Shown here in pieces: positions 1-27,027 of a stretch of 64,000 bases of DNA; the first letter of the stretch is position 1; each line of letters opens with the position of its first letter. The translations under genes were made by a program, and so were the position numbers. The DNA is taken from the IMG/VR virus record IMGVR_UViG_3300021400_000932; one strand, written 5' to 3'. Source of the DNA: a virus. Its lineage: Duplodnaviria > Heunggongvirae > Uroviricota > Caudoviricetes. The notes under the pieces were generated by a model. It worked only from the letters and a program-made list of their open reading frames with translations. It was not told the origin of the DNA and ran no database searches.

Positions 1-174
1 AACTGTTATATGGATTAGAATAGCTGCTGACAGGGTTGCTGTCATACTCTTCTTCAGAAAGCATTTCAGCAAAAGCTGCATCTAATGCATGAATGGTTGT
101 ACCCATATCTCTATTAGAAGATTGCATATCTAAATCATTGATGTCCATTTGTAACCTCATTGTAATTTACAGAT

Positions 175-679: not shown

Positions 680-1381
680 TTATGAATATCTCTTATCCTT
701 GTCTTCTGCACTCCGGAAGATGAACTTCCGGTAATCCTCATAGTCTGAGAACTGAATGTACTCACCGGTGCGAACATCAAAGCAATTTGAATTTCTGCAA
801 AATTCATAGCTGTTTGCACTGACTACGATATAAATATCGCAAGATTCCCTCTGTTTGAAATCCTCAATAATGACATCGAACAAATCAGTTTTGACACTAT
901 CAATATTATCTACAGACAATCCACTATCGAGGGCATCCAGCAGCACCCAAATCTCCTTGCGGTTATTCGCATACTTACGAACAAATGCACCGATTTTCCT
1001 TGCTGTGTTGCCGAGATTCGTTACAATCTGTTCACCCTCAGAACTCTGTATCAATGTCGCAAGAAGACTCCAATCATCATGCCATCCAGCGGAATTCTTT
1101 GCTCTGTCGCCACCCTCACGGAGATTGTCGTAATGAAGAACAGCAACATCGGAATCTTGTTTTAAGATATCCTCTATGAGATTGAGAAATGTTGTCTTTC
1201 CAGAACCATTACACCCAACCAATACTGTGATTCCGCTTTTAATTACTACATCAGATTTCATATAAATCTTTCCGGAATCACCGCATTCATAAGGATTAGT
1301 AGGTATTTTGAATTTGTGCATATGTTCGCCTCCAGTTATGATGCCTAGGGTGTCGGGTATATGTGTGGTATAACCCGACAT
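680..1381 (-). CDS. P-loop NTPase, ABC/AAA_21-like minimal ATPase (likely start at internal Met MHKFKI)
   Basis: Walker A VLVGCNGSGKTTF preceded by an SMC/RecF-like N-terminal strand; Walker B IWVLLDALDSGL; no ABC signature motif; sits between tRNA genes. Confidence 0.6.
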   Translation of the reverse strand: MSGYTTHIPDTLGIITGGEHMHKFKIPTNPYECGDSGKIYMKSDVVIKSGITVLVGCNGSGKTTFLNLIEDILKQDSDVAVLHYDNLREGGDRAKNSAGWHDDWSLLATLIQSSEGEQIVTNLGNTARKIGAFVRKYANNRKEIWVLLDALDSGLSVDNIDSVKTDLFDVIIEDFKQRESCDIYIVVSANSYEFCRNSNCFDVRTGEYIQFSDYEDYRKFIFRSAEDKDKRYS

Positions 1382-1496: not shown

Positions 1497-1593
1497 TGGT
1501 GGCGAGGGCAGGATTCGAACCTACGTTACCTGAGCTACATATCGTACTACTGTACTAAGCAATCAGTGTCTTAGACCACTTGACCAACCCGCC
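1497..1593 (-). tRNA. tRNA-like gene (type II-like, 97 nt) with non-canonical anticodon arm; identity undetermined, possibly pseudo-tRNA
   Basis: Reverse complement GGCGGGTTGGTCAAGTGG...GTAGGTTCGAATCCTGC CCTCGCC A CCA has good acceptor, D and T arms and an encoded CCA. No 5-bp anticodon stem with a 7-nt loop and U33/R37 can be drawn in the CTGATTGCTTAGTACAG region. Confidence 0.45.
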
Positions 1594-2252: not shown

Positions 2253-2528
2253 TCAGGACATATGGTCTTCAACAAAAGATACCAAATCTGCCACTGTTCT
2301 GCATTCGCAAAATTCTGACAAAGCGGGTTCATTAATAGAGAATTTGAACATATCCTCTATATCAATAGCCAAGTCCACAGCATCAAGGGAATCAAGACCG
2401 AGGTCCCCACGAAGTTCGGTATCTAAAATTATCTCAGATTTATCTGTGTCTGATTGCTGAGATACCATGTTTCGTACAATTTCAAATACTTCTGACATTT
2501 GAACCTCCATGGCATATAACGATTTCAT
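2253..2528 (-). CDS. acpP: acyl carrier protein homolog (probable start at internal Met MSEVFEI)
   Basis: Phosphopantetheine-attachment motif LGLDSLDAVDL (DSL serine) in a small acidic ~80-aa protein, matching the bacterial ACP LGADSLD motif. Confidence 0.7.
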   Translation of the reverse strand: MKSLYAMEVQMSEVFEIVRNMVSQQSDTDKSEIILDTELRGDLGLDSLDAVDLAIDIEDMFKFSINEPALSEFCECRTVADLVSFVEDHMS

Positions 2529-3189: not shown

Positions 3190-3270
3190 TGGTGCGCCTG
3201 ACAGGACTCGAACCTGCACCCTTGCGGACTAGAGCCTAAATCTAGCGTGTATGCTTTCCACCACAGGCGC
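3190..3270 (-). tRNA. tRNA-Leu (anticodon TAG), type II
   Basis: Acceptor GCGCCTG/CAGGCGC, anticodon stem-loop CTAGA-TTTAGGC-TCTAG, variable arm, T-arm GCAGGTTCGAGTCCTGT, CCA encoded; D-loop lacks the GG dinucleotide. Confidence 0.7.
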
Positions 3271-5780: not shown

Positions 5781-6407
5781 TTATGCAGAAATTTCGTCTG
5801 CGGTAAGCGGAATTACGCGCGAAATGACGAATGGCACAGAAACTGTCAGGATGGCCCCTCCGGCCTGGTCCCCTGGACCTCTGTTCAAAGCACCAATCCA
5901 AGTACCAGGACAACGGAGACCATGACGCAGATTACCTTGTCCATCATAGCGAAGGAAGTAAACCTGCTTCATATACTCTGTAGGTAATCCCATTCTTTCG
6001 GTTGCAGGGTCATACACCTGACGTCTCCACTCTTCGAGAGCTCCGAGAACATTAGGCTCACAGAAGCAGTTAAGAGTCCAAGTGACATCATCGAAGTTGA
6101 CCTTAGACGGGAATTTGATTAGACCATTACCGTAGTGTACTGTGATGATATCTTCACTCTCTGAGATATCACCGATTTCTGCGGTAGACAGGGTTAATAG
6201 GTCGGAATTTTCTGTCGGGCTGGAACCATCCATGTTGTAGATTCTTACCTCAAAGTTGTTAGTGGTCAGAGGTACATAGTTATCTACACCCAACATATGG
6301 TTTGTACGTTTGTGTTTAGCGGAATTTCGCAAGGATTCCGTTGTTGTAGCTCTCCGGAAACTACCTTTTACCTTTCGATAAAAGACCAGACTATTTGTTA
6401 ATCTCAT
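5781..6407 (-). CDS. hypothetical protein (first gene of a long minus-strand operon)
   Basis: 208-aa ORF starting at the divergent intergenic region 6408-6840. Confidence 0.5.
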   Translation of the reverse strand: MRLTNSLVFYRKVKGSFRRATTTESLRNSAKHKRTNHMLGVDNYVPLTTNNFEVRIYNMDGSSPTENSDLLTLSTAEIGDISESEDIITVHYGNGLIKFPSKVNFDDVTWTLNCFCEPNVLGALEEWRRQVYDPATERMGLPTEYMKQVYFLRYDGQGNLRHGLRCPGTWIGALNRGPGDQAGGAILTVSVPFVISRVIPLTADEISA

Positions 6408-6757
6408 TATATTTTGAGATTGTGGATTTTTCGCTCACCCATTGGCTTGGCAGCTAACTCCCCCTCAAGGGGATAGTCGTTGAACGTATTTCATATTGGA
6501 TATATTACCCAACTTAGAAATTTCGCTGCTAAACGTCCCATTGTTACATCTCTTACTTTTTAATCTATCACGATTACTATTTCTAGTTTCGTTGTAGCAA
6601 AGAGCTCTTAGGAACTTCAAAGCAATTAACACACAGCACATATGTATCACTACATATGTGGGGCATCATCCACCCATGTACAGCGGAGAAAACATATATT
6701 TTATCTCACCTTTCTATAATATTTTTGAGTTTTTGATTGACTCATTGATATTATAGG

Positions 6758-7024: not shown

Positions 7025-8530
7025 ATGGAAAGATATGGATGTGTTGCCCCTGGAAATAACATAGCAGCTAGAAAGAAAGCGAAAGCTACTATGCAAGAAC
7101 GATTTGGTGTTGACTATGCTATGCAATCGGAAACTGTCAGAAAGAAATCTGTTGCCACCAATATAAAAAAGTATGGTGTCGAAAACCCCCAACAAAATGA
7201 AACAATCAAACAAAAAACCGCAGAAACAAATCAGGAACGGTATGGGGGCACCGGTTTTCAATCAGAAGAGTTGCTAAATAAGTATAAAGATACAATGATT
7301 GATATATATGGTGTTACTTCCCCCATTCAAAACCAACAGATTCGACAGGATATTATGAATACTATGCAAGACAGACATGGCGCTTCATGGTTCTCTCAGA
7401 GTGAAGAATATAAAGATAAATGTCATACTACTTCATTATCTAAATATGGTGCGGAACACTGGATGCAAACAGATGAGTGTAAGCAGAAATGCAAAGATAC
7501 TTGGCTGCGGAATTATGGCGTTGATAATCCATCGAAATCTCCGCTAGTAATCGCCAAGATAAAGCAGACATTTATTGATAAGTATGGGACAGATGGACTA
7601 TTGAATGTAGCTGAAATCCGAGAGAAGATACAGAAGACTTGCATTGAAAGATATGGTGTTCCCTATGGGGTATTGACACCACAAGCACGAAAACACAATG
7701 GTGCTATATCGAAGCAAAACAAACAAGTAATGAAATTATTAGATGATGCCGGTTTGAGCTATCAGTCAGAATTCAATCTTGAAAATAAATCATTTGACAT
7801 CAAAATTTTATATTCCAATATACTTATTGAGATTGACCCATCATACACACATTCAATAGAACTAACTCACTGGAATACCTCTGTTTCAGATACATACCAT
7901 ATAGAAAAGACTATGTTGGCAAACAAACATGGATATCAATGTTACCATATCTTCGATTGGGACGATAGGAAAAAATTTGTCAAATCTCTAACTAAGAAAA
8001 AAGATATAGAAACAGACCAATATTATATATCTGAAGTAGATGAATTGACTGCAACTGAATTTTATTATAAATATTCCATCTATATGCCGGATACCAAGTA
8101 TGCAATCCATATTGGAATATTCAACAAGCGGAATAATGCACTACTGCAAGTATCGTCATTCAGATTCATAGATATTTCTAACTGTCGGTGGCTGCTTTGT
8201 GCTAACAGCATCAAATTCCAAATTAATGTTATAGATGGACTGCATAATATCATAGACCACTTTGTTAAATACTATGACCCTGCTGAAATTGTCGGATTAT
8301 GTGATATAGCAAAATCAAATGGGATGATGTTTGAATCAATAGGGTTCAAAGAACTTTCAGAAGAACCACCACGTTTGATTTGGAGTCGATATCGGTCAGC
8401 AATTTCTAATGACAATGTAAAAAGTCAAACCAAATTGAATGATGAACAAATATACTCTATGATGATAAACAATAAATATCTGCCTGTATATGACTGTGGA
8501 TACAAAGTATATTCATTGAAACTCCGGTAA
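7025..8530 (+). CDS. repeat-containing putative site-specific/homing endonuclease: tandem ~30-aa K..(K/R)YGV.NP.Q repeats plus C-terminal PD-(D/E)xK-like (DUF559/Vsr-type) domain; N-terminal Zn-finger module probably starts at 6841
   Basis: At least eight repeats (QERFGVDYAMQSE, KKYGVENPQQNE, QERYGGTGFQSEE, IDIYGVTSP, SKYGAEHWMQ, RNYGVDNPSKSP, DKYGTDGLLN, ERYGVPYGV). The C-terminal FDIKILYSNILIEIDPSYTH resembles a DUF559 nuclease core. The in-frame upstream sequence 6842-7024 encodes CKFCGKEF...CPVCGKEY and has no start codon. Confidence 0.75.
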   Translation: MERYGCVAPGNNIAARKKAKATMQERFGVDYAMQSETVRKKSVATNIKKYGVENPQQNETIKQKTAETNQERYGGTGFQSEELLNKYKDTMIDIYGVTSPIQNQQIRQDIMNTMQDRHGASWFSQSEEYKDKCHTTSLSKYGAEHWMQTDECKQKCKDTWLRNYGVDNPSKSPLVIAKIKQTFIDKYGTDGLLNVAEIREKIQKTCIERYGVPYGVLTPQARKHNGAISKQNKQVMKLLDDAGLSYQSEFNLENKSFDIKILYSNILIEIDPSYTHSIELTHWNTSVSDTYHIEKTMLANKHGYQCYHIFDWDDRKKFVKSLTKKKDIETDQYYISEVDELTATEFYYKYSIYMPDTKYAIHIGIFNKRNNALLQVSSFRFIDISNCRWLLCANSIKFQINVIDGLHNIIDHFVKYYDPAEIVGLCDIAKSNGMMFESIGFKELSEEPPRLIWSRYRSAISNDNVKSQTKLNDEQIYSMMINNKYLPVYDCGYKVYSLKLR

Positions 8531-17505: not shown

Positions 17506-17958
17506 TCAGAAAAGCATCTCTTCAAGCCTGCGTGCTTTTTCCTCAGCTTGTTTCAGCCAGGTTTCATATCTATCCAGCCAATAACCTCGTTCCATAGAGA
17601 GCATTTCCAGCAACTCTTCATCGCTTGCATCGGACAAAGGCAAATGTCCGCTACAACGTGCAGACTCAGTAATTGTATCTGAATCAAACCAAACCCAACC
17701 CTCACAAACACCGACCAGGGTAAAGCCGTACTTTCCGAACAAATTTGGATATTTGGTATCCCAACCCAAGGCTGGGCTGCTCTGATTAACTGCATCAAGC
17801 AGTTCTTGTCTTGTCATATATTTCATAGTATTACTCTTCCAACAGACTCCCAATCGAAGCTGCGGTATTCTGAGCAAGTTTGACATCAACTTCACTCGGA
17901 ACCTGAATCCTATCGTCTGCAAGCAGAACAACCGAACCATAAACATCGCCATTTGCAA
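17506..17958 (-). CDS. hypothetical protein
   Basis: 150-aa ORF; its N-terminus overlaps the next gene, so the true start is probably internal. Confidence 0.4.
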   Translation of the reverse strand: MQMAMFMVRLFCLQTIGFRFRVKLMSNLLRIPQLRLGVCWKSNTMKYMTRQELLDAVNQSSPALGWDTKYPNLFGKYGFTLVGVCEGWVWFDSDTITESARCSGHLPLSDASDEELLEMLSMERGYWLDRYETWLKQAEEKARRLEEMLF

Positions 17959-18367
17959 TAATCGGAATCACCAAAGATGCCGGTCGGCAATTAGCATCGA
18001 ATGTCGGACGAACGACATTATCATGACTGTATGTGTATTGTCTTCTGCTTTCGATGACAGTTTCGAGTTCATTTGAGATAGTCTGTTCAATGTATTGTCG
18101 CTTACTTACTCCGGAAACAGCTACTACTGAGTCTCTGTCAGTAATCAAAACAGAGTGCGAACTTAGCGATTCAAGTACATTTGCAAACTTGCCGACAAAA
18201 GATGATAGAGAACTGATTGGATGATACTTCTTGTAAATAATAGCACCATCCTCAACATAGATTTCCAGAGGGTCACCCTCTCTAATCCTTAAAGAACGGC
18301 GTATCTCCTTCGGAATTATAACTCTCCCGAGGTCATCAATTCTACGAACAATTCCGGTTGCTTTCAT
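17831..18367 (-). CDS. spoVT: SpoVT-like transcriptional regulator (AbrB-type N-terminal domain + GAF-like C-terminal domain)
   Basis: 178 aa. N-terminal MKATGIVRRIDDLGRVIIPKEIRRSLRIREGDPLEIYVE closely resembles Bacillus SpoVT (recalled from memory, not database-checked). Length and two-domain layout also match. Confidence 0.75.
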   Translation of the reverse strand: MKATGIVRRIDDLGRVIIPKEIRRSLRIREGDPLEIYVEDGAIIYKKYHPISSLSSFVGKFANVLESLSSHSVLITDRDSVVAVSGVSKRQYIEQTISNELETVIESRRQYTYSHDNVVRPTFDANCRPASLVIPIIANGDVYGSVVLLADDRIQVPSEVDVKLAQNTAASIGSLLEE

Positions 18368-21116: not shown

Positions 21117-21300
21117 CCACACGACTAAAGTCGTGGGATTCTTGCTTCAACGACTACGGCGAGCGTTTTACTCAAAGAGTTCAGCTCGACTTACACAATC
21201 TCCACAAGCTAGATTAAAGAGTTCCCGTGTGCCCCACGGTGCTCTGTGTATTAATAGAGGTTAAGCTATCATAGCCAACCCTTTAGTTAATATATTCATA
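21117..21300 (-). ncRNA. putative TnpB omega/right-end guide RNA (3' end of tnpB plus right end)
   Basis: Structured ~145-nt right-end segment downstream of the tnpB stop, ending in the terminal hairpin; by analogy to characterised IS605 TnpB systems. Confidence 0.4.
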
Positions 21301-22355
21301 GCGGCATTGACATCTCTGTCGTGATACTCTCCGCACTCGGGGCAAGTCCACTTTCGTATAGCTAAATTCTTAACTAATGGATTTTTATATCCGCACTTGT
21401 TACACAACTGACTGCTCGGATAGGTAGTAGGCACTCTCTGTACTGTCCTGCCGTACCAGGCAGCTTTGTATTCAAGCATTGTAAAAAACTTAGACCACGA
21501 AGCGGAGGATATACTTTTAGCCAGCTTGTGATTTTTGAGCATATTTTTGATTTTCAAGTCTTCTACACAGATTACTTGGTTTTCGTTAATCAGTGTAGTT
21601 GAAAGCTTTTGCAAAAAATCATTTCGCTGATTAGATACCTTCTCGTGGACTTTAGCTACTCTTAGTCGTTGCTTATCTCTGTTATGGGAGTCAACCTTCT
21701 TTCTGGAAAGTTTTCTTTGTTCTCTGCGTAATTTTCTTTGTGTTCGTTCTAACCTTTTGTGATTAGGTACAGAATTACCGTTACTGTCGGAATAGAAATC
21801 TTTTATGCCGACATCTATACCAATAACGGAATCTATTCTGTCTAAAGGTTGAGGTTCAAAGTCAATGTTAAGAACAGCAAAATACTTTCCTGTAGGTGTT
21901 CTCTCTACAGTAACATTATTAATATGACCTATATTCATTGACTGTTTGACTTTAATATAGCCAAGCTTTGGTAACTTTAGTTTATTGCCGTCAATGCGAA
22001 TATTATTACCTTGATTAAGAGTTCTGTAACTCTGGCGATGGTTATGTTTACTTTTGAAACAAGGATATCTGCCTAACTTCTTAAAGAAGTTTTGATACGC
22101 TCGGTCTAAATCCCTGAGAGATTGTTGCAGAGCAATACTATCAACTTCCTTAAGAAAGGAAAAGTCATCTTGCATTTTCATAGAGGTGAGCATAGCAGAA
22201 GTAGCGGTATAGTTAGCTTTATTACCTAACTTGTATTGTTCAATTCTGTATGCTAAACCTTTGTTGTAAATGAATCGAACACAACCAAGAGTGCGGTTTA
22301 TTATGTTTTGCTGTTCCCGATTGGGATAGATACGAAACTTTACACCTTTGTTCAT
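21261..22355 (-). CDS. tnpB: TnpB (IS605 OrfB-family RNA-guided nuclease)
   Basis: 364 aa; RuvC-like motifs ([10 protein letters not shown]) and C-terminal zinc finger CNKCG...CPECG. Confidence 0.85.
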
Positions 22356-25434: not shown

Positions 25435-27027
25435 TTATGTATTTGAAATGTCGGATACCTGTGTTGGGATATCTGTAGTAGGAACGTCATTCACATGAAC
25501 CGCTACATTATCACCGCCAAGTGCCTTAGCACCGAACAGACCGACAAGCAGGGACTTGAGGTCAAATCCCATAGATTCGCTCAGACCATCATTAACCTGA
25601 GTCAGTCCGTTGATAATCTGTCCGGTAAACTGACCTGCATCACCACCAAAAATCTTGATGGAATCAACAGAACTGAATCCACCTGCGATAGCCGAAGCAA
25701 TTTCCGGCAGCTTGTCAAAGTAGGCAACTGCCGCATCGAGAACCATCTGTTTCTGTGCAGCTTCGCCATACAGAGCCATAGCCTCAGCCTTTTCTTTCAA
25801 ACCTTCAGCCTCAGCAATCAGCTTAGCCTTTGCGGCCTCAGCCTCTGCATTACCTTTGGCGCGGATAGCATCAGCTTCTGCTAAACCAGCAGCACGAATA
25901 GCCTCTGCATCCTGTTCCTTTGCGAAACGTTCAGCCTCCGCAGATGCCTTTTTAGCCGATGCACTCTGCTGTGCCTCATACATCTGAGCATCTGCATCCT
26001 GCTGGCGCTTGTACTTCTCAGCTTCTGCATTACGCTGTTCTGTGTAAAGTTCAGCATCAGCTTCCTGCTGTGCAGCAAACTTATCAGCTTCTGCTTTCTT
26101 CTTGATTTCGGCTTCAAGTCTACGCTCAGTAATCTTTACCTCACGTTCTTCAAGTTCAATCTGCTTTTCCTGACGAGCAAGGTTCGCATCAGCTTCTGCA
26201 ATTTCCTTGGACTTGCGCTGATTCTCAGCCTCAATGCCCTTGGCCGCCTCTGCCTTTGCAATCTTGATGTCCTGCTGTTCCTTGAGTTCAGCCTGCTTGA
26301 TAGCAAGCGCATTCTCTTTAATAGCAATTTCAGTCTGGGCCGCAATCTCAGCATCATTAGCTTGCTTCTGTGCATCCGCCTGAGCAATAGCTACCTCTGC
26401 CCTTGCGCGTGCTGCAGCAATAGAGGCATCCTTTTTAATCTGTTCAGTATTCTCAATACCGAGATTGTCAATAACCCCATTCTGGTCAGAGAAGTTCTGA
26501 ATATTAAAAGTAGTGAGCTTAAGACCCATATCTCGAAGATTCGGACTGACATTCTCAGTAATCTTCTCAGCAAGTACTTTCTTATCTCCGCGAATTAAAT
26601 CAGTCAGCGGAATCTGAGAAATGATTTCACGAATGTTACCCTCTAAAATCGGGGTAATTTCAACCCGAATTTCTTCTGTAGTACGACCTAGGAATTTAGA
26701 AGCCGCAATCTTCAGAACCTCTGGGTCTTGGTCAATAGACATATTGGCTACAGCATCGACACGAATATTGATTGCATCCTGTGTCGGAATCTCACTCTTA
26801 GAAACAAAGTCAACCTGAATGTTTTCGAGTGACATAAAGTCCACTCTCTGAAAAAATGGGATTACAAATTTCGCCCTACCGATATAAGTCTTTGCACCTC
26901 TCGGACCAGTAACAACCATAGCTCGGTTGGGTGGGCATTTTCGATAGCACACCTTAAAGATAAGGACCAACAGAAAAAGAACTACAATGCCTGCGATAAC
27001 TGGGGTAAGAATTTGCCATGGAACCAT
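25435..27027 (-). CDS. flotillin-like SPFH/band-7 protein (FloT/YqiK-like)
   Basis: N-terminal transmembrane helix, SPFH core (NRAMVVTGPRGAKTYIGRAKFVIPFFQRVDFMSLENIQVDF), long Ala/Glu-rich coiled coil (AEAE repeats), C-terminal domain; 530 aa. Confidence 0.8.
   Translation of the reverse strand: MVPWQILTPVIAGIVVLFLLVLIFKVCYRKCPPNRAMVVTGPRGAKTYIGRAKFVIPFFQRVDFMSLENIQVDFVSKSEIPTQDAINIRVDAVANMSIDQDPEVLKIAASKFLGRTTEEIRVEITPILEGNIREIISQIPLTDLIRGDKKVLAEKITENVSPNLRDMGLKLTTFNIQNFSDQNGVIDNLGIENTEQIKKDASIAAARARAEVAIAQADAQKQANDAEIAAQTEIAIKENALAIKQAELKEQQDIKIAKAEAAKGIEAENQRKSKEIAEADANLARQEKQIELEEREVKITERRLEAEIKKKAEADKFAAQQEADAELYTEQRNAEAEKYKRQQDADAQMYEAQQSASAKKASAEAERFAKEQDAEAIRAAGLAEADAIRAKGNAEAEAAKAKLIAEAEGLKEKAEAMALYGEAAQKQMVLDAAVAYFDKLPEIASAIAGGFSSVDSIKIFGGDAGQFTGQIINGLTQVNDGLSESMGFDLKSLLVGLFGAKALGGDNVAVHVNDVPTTDIPTQVSDISNT

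Follow-up and report, generated by a model that had tools for sequence, protein, structure and literature searches.

What does a phage keep a tRNA-shaped gene for, if the gene has no arm on which to present an anticodon? The question is raised by an element of 97 nt, here called X, in a stretch of 64,000 nt from the IMG/VR virus record IMGVR_UViG_3300021400_000932 (Caudoviricetes; the whole stretch is referred to below as the window). An earlier reading of the bare sequence (the original prediction) had described the element as a tRNA-like gene with intact acceptor, D and T arms and a broken anticodon arm, and had considered a decaying pseudo-tRNA, a tRNA with an expanded loop, a tRNA-like RNA with a different role and a fusion scar. 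We found X, with a rebuilt anticodon arm of constant length, in three phage lineages, and we give about an even chance to the combined reading that X is a functional gene under selection, that it descended from the phage lineage's own tRNA-Glu(UUC), and that it does not decode.

A tRNA body without a canonical anticodon arm

The element lies at positions 1497-1593, as originally proposed, with the gene on the minus strand, and its 97-nt RNA is GGCGGGUUGGUCAAGUGGUCUAAGACACUGAUUGCUUAGUACAGUAGUACGAUAUGUAGCUCAGGUAACGUAGGUUCGAAUCCUGCCCUCGCCACCA. It stands in a same-strand array with seven ordinary tRNA genes (Asn, Asp, Leu-CAA, Gly, Leu-UAG, Lys-UUU and Leu-UAA), and CCA is encoded by all eight tRNA genes in the window, X included. 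The whole gene and its tRNA-like parts are as follows.

1497..1593 (-): X, the whole tRNA-shaped gene, 97 nt including the encoded ACCA; called by ARAGORN, RF00005 36.9 bits
1587..1593 (-): acceptor stem, 5' strand, RNA positions 1-7, GGCGGGU; pairs with 1501-1507
1568..1584 (-): D arm, positions 10-26, 3-bp stem GUC/GAC, loop AAGUGGUCUAA; positions 8-24 invariant in six of six variants
1525..1528 (-): variable loop UAAC, 4 nt, no residue 47 (a tRNA-Glu signature); GGUAAC invariant in X
1508..1524 (-): T arm GUAGG-UUCGAAU-CCUGC, positions 70-86; helix 5, 100% paired, three of five pairs changed on both sides
1501..1507 (-): acceptor stem, 3' strand, positions 87-93, CCUCGCC; helix 1, 90.5% of cells paired, three pairs changed on both sides
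1497..1500 (-): discriminator A73 and encoded CCA; invariant in six of six variants

The encoded CCA, the 3-bp D stem and the T arm are as originally described, the D loop is normal (A14, G18G19), and the elbow nucleotides U8, A14, G18G19, U54U55C56 and G15-C48 are all there and invariant in the six variants. The acceptor stem of the window copy, which had been drawn with 7 bp, has six standard pairs and a U7.C66 mismatch in the RF00005 alignment; in the copies on contigs L161 and L170, which represent the other two lineages, seven of seven pairs are standard, with pairs 2-71 and 6-67 changed from G-C to A-U.

The anticodon arm is the part that does not conform. The covariance model RF00005 gave X 36.9 bits (E = 4e-4 for the whole window), compared with a gathering score of 29 and with 53-72 bits for the seven neighbouring tRNAs, and X passed the threshold only by way of a local end that skipped the anticodon arm, setting 29 nt against 9 model positions. 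This alignment, of the Infernal type that the original prediction had proposed as a check, recovered no canonical anticodon stem-loop. In addition, a scan of all 7-nt loops in X found none with a stem of at least four pairs and both U33 and a purine at position 37, which, with the deletion scan described below, bears out the claim that a 5-bp/7-nt arm with U33/R37 cannot be drawn. ARAGORN labelled the window copy tRNA-Lys(CUU). Tried as a canonical elongator tRNA, X passes the RF00005 threshold and has the acceptor stem with CCA and the D and T arms, but it fails on the 5-bp/7-nt anticodon arm, and because that defining feature fails we do not file it as a tRNA.

Other RNA classes were rejected as well. 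tRNA-Sec (RF01852) and allo-tRNA call for an acceptor/T arrangement of 8/5 or 9/4, a D stem of 6 bp, a long variable arm and a UCA anticodon, whereas in X the arrangement is 7/5, the D stem has 3 bp, the variable loop is 4 nt long and a UCA loop is missing; YrlA and tmRNA (transfer-messenger RNA) models gave no match on X at E <= 10, the tmRNAs called by ARAGORN in relatives lying elsewhere and none at X. Promoter and terminator scans yielded nothing above shuffled expectation.

Distribution and conservation

Relatives were reached through contigs carrying homologues of a 213-aa P-loop ATPase encoded downstream of X (680-1321). Copies of X were present in 13 other assemblies, as five further variants, making six distinct sequences with that of the window and falling into three lineages (window, L150, L162 and L151; L161; L170). 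All variants are 97 nt long except that of L170, which is 96 nt. The ATPase is identical to that of the window at 97% of positions in L150, 87% in L162, 85% in L151-L159 (nine assemblies with one identical X sequence, missed by ARAGORN), 84% in L161, where X occupies another place in the array, and 51% in L170, where X directly follows the tmRNA gene. Across the three lineages with the rebuilt arm, the ATPase has 51-86% protein identity to that of the window lineage. A covariance model built from the six X sequences (R1) scored 97-118 bits on the X copies. As the record names suggest, the contigs of these relatives come from rumen and gut metagenomes.

Broader searches returned no further copies. 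Direct DNA similarity to 50,697 GenBank phages gave no match, pattern scans of 185,579 reference genomes revealed no X, and pattern scans of IMG/VR revealed no X and one unrelated tRNA-Ser (L029). A metagenome scan with a loose pattern returned at least 120 tRNA-Ser genes, with no X among the matches listed, and a literature search found no description of such an element. On an unrelated contig (L084:1122-1204; saline-lake sediment according to the record name), the loose pattern alone also caught a tRNA whose anticodon region holds a long insert and whose CCA is not encoded; it resembles the intron-bearing tRNAs of archaea.

On the six-sequence alignment, the proposed structure (cloverleaf plus rebuilt arm) leaves 94.9% of cells paired, compared with 33-43% when the partners are slid by one to three columns. 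Nine pairs changed on both sides: 2-71, 6-67 and 7-66 in the acceptor stem, three in the T stem, 36-58 in the arm (U-A to C-G between variants) and two in a mini-hairpin of the apical loop. Within the window lineage, X is 94-96% identical, as compared with 92-100% for true tRNAs, 82-94% for flanking genes and 76-83%, with indels, for the upstream spacer. Positions 8-24, CAC (26-28), GGUAAC, the T loop, pairs 1-72, 3-70 and 4-69 and the terminal ACCA are invariant, and the only indel among the copies is a single nucleotide in L170. Since the rebuilt arm is common to all three lineages, the rebuilding is older than their split, and the compensatory changes are later than the rebuilding.

The strongest rival explanation is that X is a processing signal only, that is, an RNase P/RNase Z module that cuts or stabilises a polycistronic transcript and whose arm is unconstrained. 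X lies between a 101-aa open reading frame (ORF) and the ATPase gene inside a same-strand tRNA array, its genomic position differs by lineage, and the interior of its arm has changed rapidly from lineage to lineage against a conserved remainder. However, RNase P requires little beyond an acceptor-T minihelix, whereas X shows no variation at 17 consecutive D-arm positions, in the Glu-type junction CAC...GGUAAC, at A73 or in pairs 1-72, 3-70 and 4-69; the arm is held at 37-38 nt with a loop of 21 nt, and the arm helices covary. We consider this explanation unlikely.

Origin from tRNA-Glu(UUC)

Three comparisons point to a tRNA-Glu(UUC) of the phages themselves as the parent of X. The best matches of model R1 other than X were the tRNA-Glu(UUC) genes of L161 (57 bits) and L170 (52 bits); among 183 ARAGORN tRNAs of related loci, tRNA-Glu(UUC) matched the D-arm region best, at 20 of 22 positions; and X and phage tRNA-Glu have in common the GGUAAC junction, A73 and G1-C72/C3-G70. 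Specifically, the phage tRNA-Glu(UUC) genes (L161:7106-7180 and L170:10922-10996) have, like X, the D arm UGGUCAAGYGG.UAAGACAC, UAAC, A73-CCA, and the outer CY/GG and inner GCC/GGC pairs of the anticodon stem. They differ in that X has one extra base in the D loop, that its stem is split by an internal loop, that a 21-nt apical loop replaces CUUUCAC, and that X does not present the UUC anticodon, of which a vestige is seen in L170 only. An ancestry in tRNA-Ser(GCU) or tRNA-Tyr, which the D loop hinted at, was rejected, as A73, UAAC and the D-arm comparison favour tRNA-Glu. In L161 and L170, X stands beside an ordinary tRNA-Glu(UUC) gene, and therefore X would be a paralogue and not the decoder.

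The identity set of Escherichia coli glutamyl-tRNA synthetase (GluRS) comprises U11-A24, the 13-22..46 triple and the lack of residue 47, together with U34, U35, C36 and A37 of the anticodon loop (PMC9976931). X has a Glu-type core, with U11-A24 (U11-G24 in L161) and UAAC, the same as in the phage tRNA-Glu genes, and both have A13/A22 rather than the U13-G22 of E. coli. The residues U34, U35, C36 and A37 are gone in the window lineage and L161 and are interrupted by 14 nt in L170. Half of the set (U11-A24, no residue 47) is thus retained and the anticodon half is lost (set from PMC9976931).

The rebuilt anticodon arm

The arm contains the following parts.

1529..1566 (-): rebuilt anticodon arm, positions 28-65, 38 nt compared with the normal 17; skipped by RF00005, helix 3 95% paired
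1537..1557 (-): apical loop, positions 37-57, 21 nt replacing the 7-nt anticodon loop; 21 nt in all three lineages, sequence differing
1544..1555 (-): putative mini-hairpin GUAC-AGUA-GUAC, positions 39-50, within the apical loop; two pairs changed on both sides

In the alignment of tRNA-Glu with X, GACA-CCGCC-CUUUCAC-GGCGG-UAAC corresponds to GACA-CY-[GAUU]-GCY-(21 nt)-RGC-[UYA]-GG-UAAC. Judged by this comparison, the surplus 20-21 nt is an expanded anticodon arm and not a variable region, the variable loop being the 4-nt UAAC; the long variable region of the original prediction was mis-registered. A class II tRNA with a 25-nt variable arm, as drawn by ARAGORN and by the earlier reading, was rejected on the same comparison and would have a 3-pair anticodon stem and G33. 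Across the lineages the arm is 37-38 nt long, the 96-nt copy being that of L170. It keeps from the Glu anticodon stem two outer pairs (CY/GG) and three inner ones (GCY/RGC), separated by an internal loop that is 4x3 in general (GAUU/UCA in the window) and 3x3 in L170. A change of U29 to C in L151 and L162 fits pairing with G64, in the Glu register with A63 bulged, and not with A63. The internal loop was also inspected as a K-turn or a UAA/GAN motif; judged by eye, UAA/GAN fits the L170 copy only (GAC/UAA), and both were set aside.

The stem of the mini-hairpin reads GUGC/GCAC or GUGC/GCGC in close relatives and the hairpin reads GUAC-UCCG-GUAC in L170, and it is a feature of the minimum-free-energy fold in five of the six variants. 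L161 favours two adjacent hairpins, a fold that the window lineage can adopt as well. What is robust about the arm is its length, the retained Glu stem pairs and the absence of an anticodon loop.

The constant length of the surplus is also what would be expected if it were a removable insert, i.e., if some 14-21 nt were taken out, by an intron-like route or by nuclease-plus-ligase editing, to leave a decoding tRNA, originally tRNA-Glu. The apical loop of L170 is CUU-GUACUCCGGUACUU-UCGC, in other words the Glu loop CUUUCRC (here CUUUCGC) interrupted by 14 nt, and relatives have a second tRNA-like gene with an insert of about 50 nt in the same arm. However, the flanks of the loop are no longer anticodon-like in the window lineage (UA-GUACAGUAGUAC-GAUAUGU) and in L161 (AAAU-GGCAUAAAGUC-UAAUAG), and the internal loop would stay after excision. 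When every single block whose deletion leaves a 17-nt arm and a 4- or 5-nt variable loop was scanned, no product with at least four stem pairs and U33 was obtained in the window, L150, L151 or L170; L161 has one solution, with an unrelated loop, AUAGGGC. In five of the six variants, therefore, no consistent canonical arm results from a single deletion, and only L170 yields a Glu-like loop, on an 8-position stem still holding the internal loop. A bulge-helix-bulge motif, with its 4-bp helix between two 3-nt bulges, cannot be drawn on the supported folds, and the surplus of 20-21 nt is far below group I size (a P3-P8 core of more than 200 nt), with no RF00028 match on X in a search that did detect the true group I intron of the window at 6366-6681. 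The hosts, moreover, would be bacterial, since relatives encode tmRNA, and bacteria are not known to have a tRNA-splicing endonuclease. No RNA ligase or splicing endonuclease was found in the 42 window ORFs scanned, which are part of the genome only. We therefore regard excision as improbable, and the L170 flanks are read as a vestige of the origin of X, not as a sign of splicing.

That X might still decode, as an expanded-loop tRNA acting in frameshift or quadruplet suppression, had been one of the original suggestions, and it accords with the ARAGORN calls of Lys-CUU in the window and of a 4-base anticodon, 'ccaa', in L161, as well as with a 4-bp stem in the window copy, AUUG/CAGU, around the loop CUUAGUA with U33. 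However, ARAGORN gives each lineage a different anticodon (ctt, none, ccaa and ccc), on stems of at most three pairs, and a change of A41 to G in close relatives closes the CUUAGUA loop to 5 nt. Known suppressor tRNAs have loops of 8-9 nt; X has, in place of such a loop on a normal 5-bp stem, an interrupted stem and an apical loop of 21 nt whose sequence differs between lineages. This is the least probable of the explanations weighed here.

Finally, the arm might be a recombination scar: a second tRNA would have been fused into a tRNA-Glu gene, and its 5' segment (GUAGCUCAG) would still be present in the arm. The motif that prompted this suggestion, GTAGCTCAG, is indeed present at 1530-1538, and the 9-mer occurs three times in the window against 0.14 expected by chance, one of the copies being the D-arm segment of tRNA-Asn. 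The comparison of lineages lends no support: only GCUYAGG is common to all three (L161 has GGGCUUAGG and L170 GCGGCUAAGG), its bases pair as the 3' strands of arm helices, with pair 36-58 covarying from U-A to C-G, and the rest of a second D arm or tRNA is not seen after the motif. Nothing supports a fusion origin of the inserted material, and we consider a scar very improbable.

Weighing decay against function

If X were a duplicate tRNA-Glu that had acquired insertions in its anticodon arm and was being lost, the absence of an anticodon would be explained, as would the failure of ARAGORN on the L151-type copy, the occurrence of several other odd tRNA-like genes in these phages, and the weak predicted stability. 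Several results weigh against a selected, non-decoding gene, some of them in favour of such decay. Pair 7-66 is a U.C or U.U mismatch in the window lineage; the whole X RNA folds no better than shuffled sequences (z = -0.25); and within the arm the predicted energies of the interior are small, and the alternative two-hairpin fold has 77-87% of cells paired on the alignment, compared with 92-95% for the one-hairpin fold. X is not in a lineage whose ATPase is about 70% identical, nor, when searched with model R1, in 108 related IMG/VR loci (28 reached through the tail-tube protein and 80 through the ATPase), so it is dispensable for many relatives. No protein neighbour conserved beside X was found across the relatives. 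Six distinct sequences from three lineages provide few covariation counts, and because they are related the shuffle statistics come out inflated. We only infer the specific role as a mimic or decoy that is discussed below.

Nevertheless, the rebuilt arm occurs in three lineages with ATPases 51-86% identical and is older than their split, the stem changes since then are compensatory and not disruptive, there are no indels except 1 nt in L170, and X is as conserved as the true tRNAs and more so than the flanking spacer. We regard decay as distinctly unlikely, ranking it after the processing signal. Among the suggestions of the original prediction, the one that agrees best with tRNA-like conservation, covarying stems and the lack of an anticodon loop is a tRNA-like RNA whose role is a different one.

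Possible role of X

If X is a selected, non-decoding derivative of tRNA-Glu, it may work as follows. Its transcription and the maturation of its ends (RNase P, CCA end) would go along with those of the surrounding tRNA genes, and it would be a substrate of the end-processing of its neighbours because the acceptor-T minihelix is intact and CCA is encoded. With no anticodon and an arm about twice the normal length (38 compared with 17 nt), it would not decode; because it lacks an anticodon loop and its arm is overlong, it should be unable to span the decoding and peptidyl-transferase centres. With the Glu-type core kept and the anticodon determinants lost, charging by GluRS would be poor or absent. 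X could thereby present the body and 3' end of a tRNA-Glu to the proteins that recognise these parts, without disturbing translation, candidate partners being GluRS, other binders of the tRNA-Glu body, and host enzymes by which tRNAs are attacked at the 3' end or in the body. The apical module, whose length is conserved, might sterically keep X off the ribosome or form a binding site of its own; a search for antisense targets of the apical loop within the window found chance 9-mers only.

Our best guess is that X is a non-decoding mimic of tRNA-Glu, acting either as regulator or competitor of an enzyme that binds tRNA-Glu, or as bait to a tRNA-attacking enzyme of the host. At least one bacterial defence RNase has tRNA-Glu(UUC) as a preferred target, which it cuts in the anticodon loop (PMC11042736). 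X does not have the anticodon loop that this RNase cuts.

Phage tRNA genes are usually explained by codon supply and, more recently, by the replacement of host tRNAs that defence nucleases have cut in the anticodon loop. A conserved paralogue without an anticodon serves neither purpose, which turns attention to the tRNA body itself, whose use could be that of a bait, a regulator, a carrier or a processing module. Such genes also distort the tRNA inventories drawn up for metagenomic phages, since ARAGORN either misses X or mislabels it (Lys-CUU, Gly-CCC, a 4-base anticodon). If its function is confirmed, X would be a compact natural example of the rebuilding of an anticodon arm with the L-shape kept under selection.

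X may not stand alone. It is possible, although we hold it doubtful, that X and other expanded tRNA-like genes, e.g., the 126-nt L151:11599-11724, form an undescribed class of phage non-decoding tRNA mimics or of cut-and-rejoin substrates. Each member of such a class would derive from one specific tRNA, its anticodon loop swapped for a length-constrained module, and would engage host tRNA-binding enzymes as an anti-defence decoy or synthetase regulator. Alternatively, the members could be substrates of an unknown bacterial or phage pathway that cuts and rejoins tRNA anticodon arms.

Other odd tRNA-like genes were observed in the related phages. A second expanded kind is represented by L151:11599-11724 (126 nt, ending in ACCA; from the phage lineage to which the window belongs, but beyond the range that the window covers) and L173:8055-8171 (117 nt); it gives 33.8 bits with RF00005, with 65 nt set against 15 anticodon-arm positions, and both copies have the hairpin GUGUYUU...AARACAC. 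The others, L150:6436-6524, which equals L151:8707-8795 (89 nt), and L164:83-177 (95 nt), are missed by ARAGORN and have a good acceptor stem, T arm and CCA and an aberrant D/anticodon region, the 89-nt gene being conserved in two phages.

The phage genome and neighbouring features

The window comes from an uncultured tailed phage. Its proteins include a tail sheath, tube, portal, terminase, family A DNA polymerase, clamp loader, RecA, primase and DnaB, and the portal is only 22-25% identical to those of Bacillus and Streptococcus phages. A SpoVT/AbrB-type regulator (17831-18367, minus strand, 103 bits) hints at a spore-forming Firmicute, and from this regulator and the tmRNA genes of relatives the host is probably bacterial and a Firmicute. 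The tmRNA genes lie in the arrays of the relatives at L161:6329-6761 and L170:7566-7997, with the tags ATLSFEKVAA and DKVVSIHPAAIAALFARKAVA.

Within the array of the window, the tRNA-Leu(UAG) gene (3190-3270, minus strand) is only 81 nt long and has a D loop, GGAAAGCAUAC, without G18G19, its orthologue in L151 being 86 nt with a normal loop, AAUUGGUA. Two small ORFs upstream of X there is an acyl-carrier-protein-like gene (2253-2528, minus strand; PP-binding, 41.8 bits), found also in L150 and L162. The P-loop ATPase gene (680-1321, minus strand; 213 aa, 203 homologues) gives weak matches to ABC_tran, AAA_15 and AAA_23 and recurs inside or beside the tRNA arrays of many large gut and rumen phages.

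Farther along, a group I intron (6366-6681, minus strand; RF00028, 64.1 bits) overlaps the 5' end of the tail tube ORF (5781-6407, minus strand; phrog_4542), a gene that it probably interrupts, and is adjoined on the opposite strand by a gene for a 501-aa HNH homing endonuclease (7025-8530, plus strand). An IS200/IS605-family transposase (21261-22355, minus strand; phrog_506, 448 bits) and a Band 7/flotillin-like protein (25435-27027, minus strand) are also encoded.

Comparison with known systems

The chromosomal 'tRNA-Other' of Bacillus cereus, a pseudo-tRNA of Firmicutes, is reportedly tRNA-shaped with an aberrant anticodon arm and kept for a non-decoding regulatory role. It is said to be of normal size and to derive from another parent tRNA, whereas X is phage-encoded, appears to derive from tRNA-Glu and carries an expansion of 20-21 nt. 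In phage T4, species 1 and 2 (rnaC and rnaD) are small stable RNAs of unknown function that are located in the tRNA cluster and processed with the tRNAs; X has no sequence relationship to them, and they are longer and cannot be recognised as copied from one specific tRNA.

Intron-containing tRNA genes resemble X in that the gene is intact apart from extra sequence in its anticodon loop. In the L170 copy the insert interrupts the U-run (positions 33-36) of a Glu-like loop, at an exact site that is ambiguous. Unlike tRNAs with the bulge-helix-bulge introns of archaea and eukaryotes, or with the group I introns found in anticodon loops of bacteria, however, X has neither the motif nor the core, excision is not restorative, and there is an additional internal loop. 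YrlA (RF02553), a Y RNA-like family of bacteria and phages, also combines a tRNA-like module, with a D-loop/T-loop interaction, and a long helix in place of the anticodon stem; RF02553 gave no match on X, and in YrlA the ends of the RNA are located in the long helix and the 'acceptor' is closed, whereas X has free acceptor ends with CCA.

The 3' tRNA-like structures (TLS) of viruses and mascRNA, which binds GlnRS (PMC9976931), are, like X, mimics of the tRNA body and 3' end outside decoding. They are eukaryotic or belong to RNA viruses, often with a pseudoknotted acceptor, whereas X is a free-standing gene of a DNA phage with a true 7-position acceptor and an encoded CCA. By analogy, X would act like these loosely defined non-decoding tRNA-like RNAs (tRNA-Other, T4 species 1 and 2, mascRNA and the viral TLS), while appearing to be a member of none of those families.

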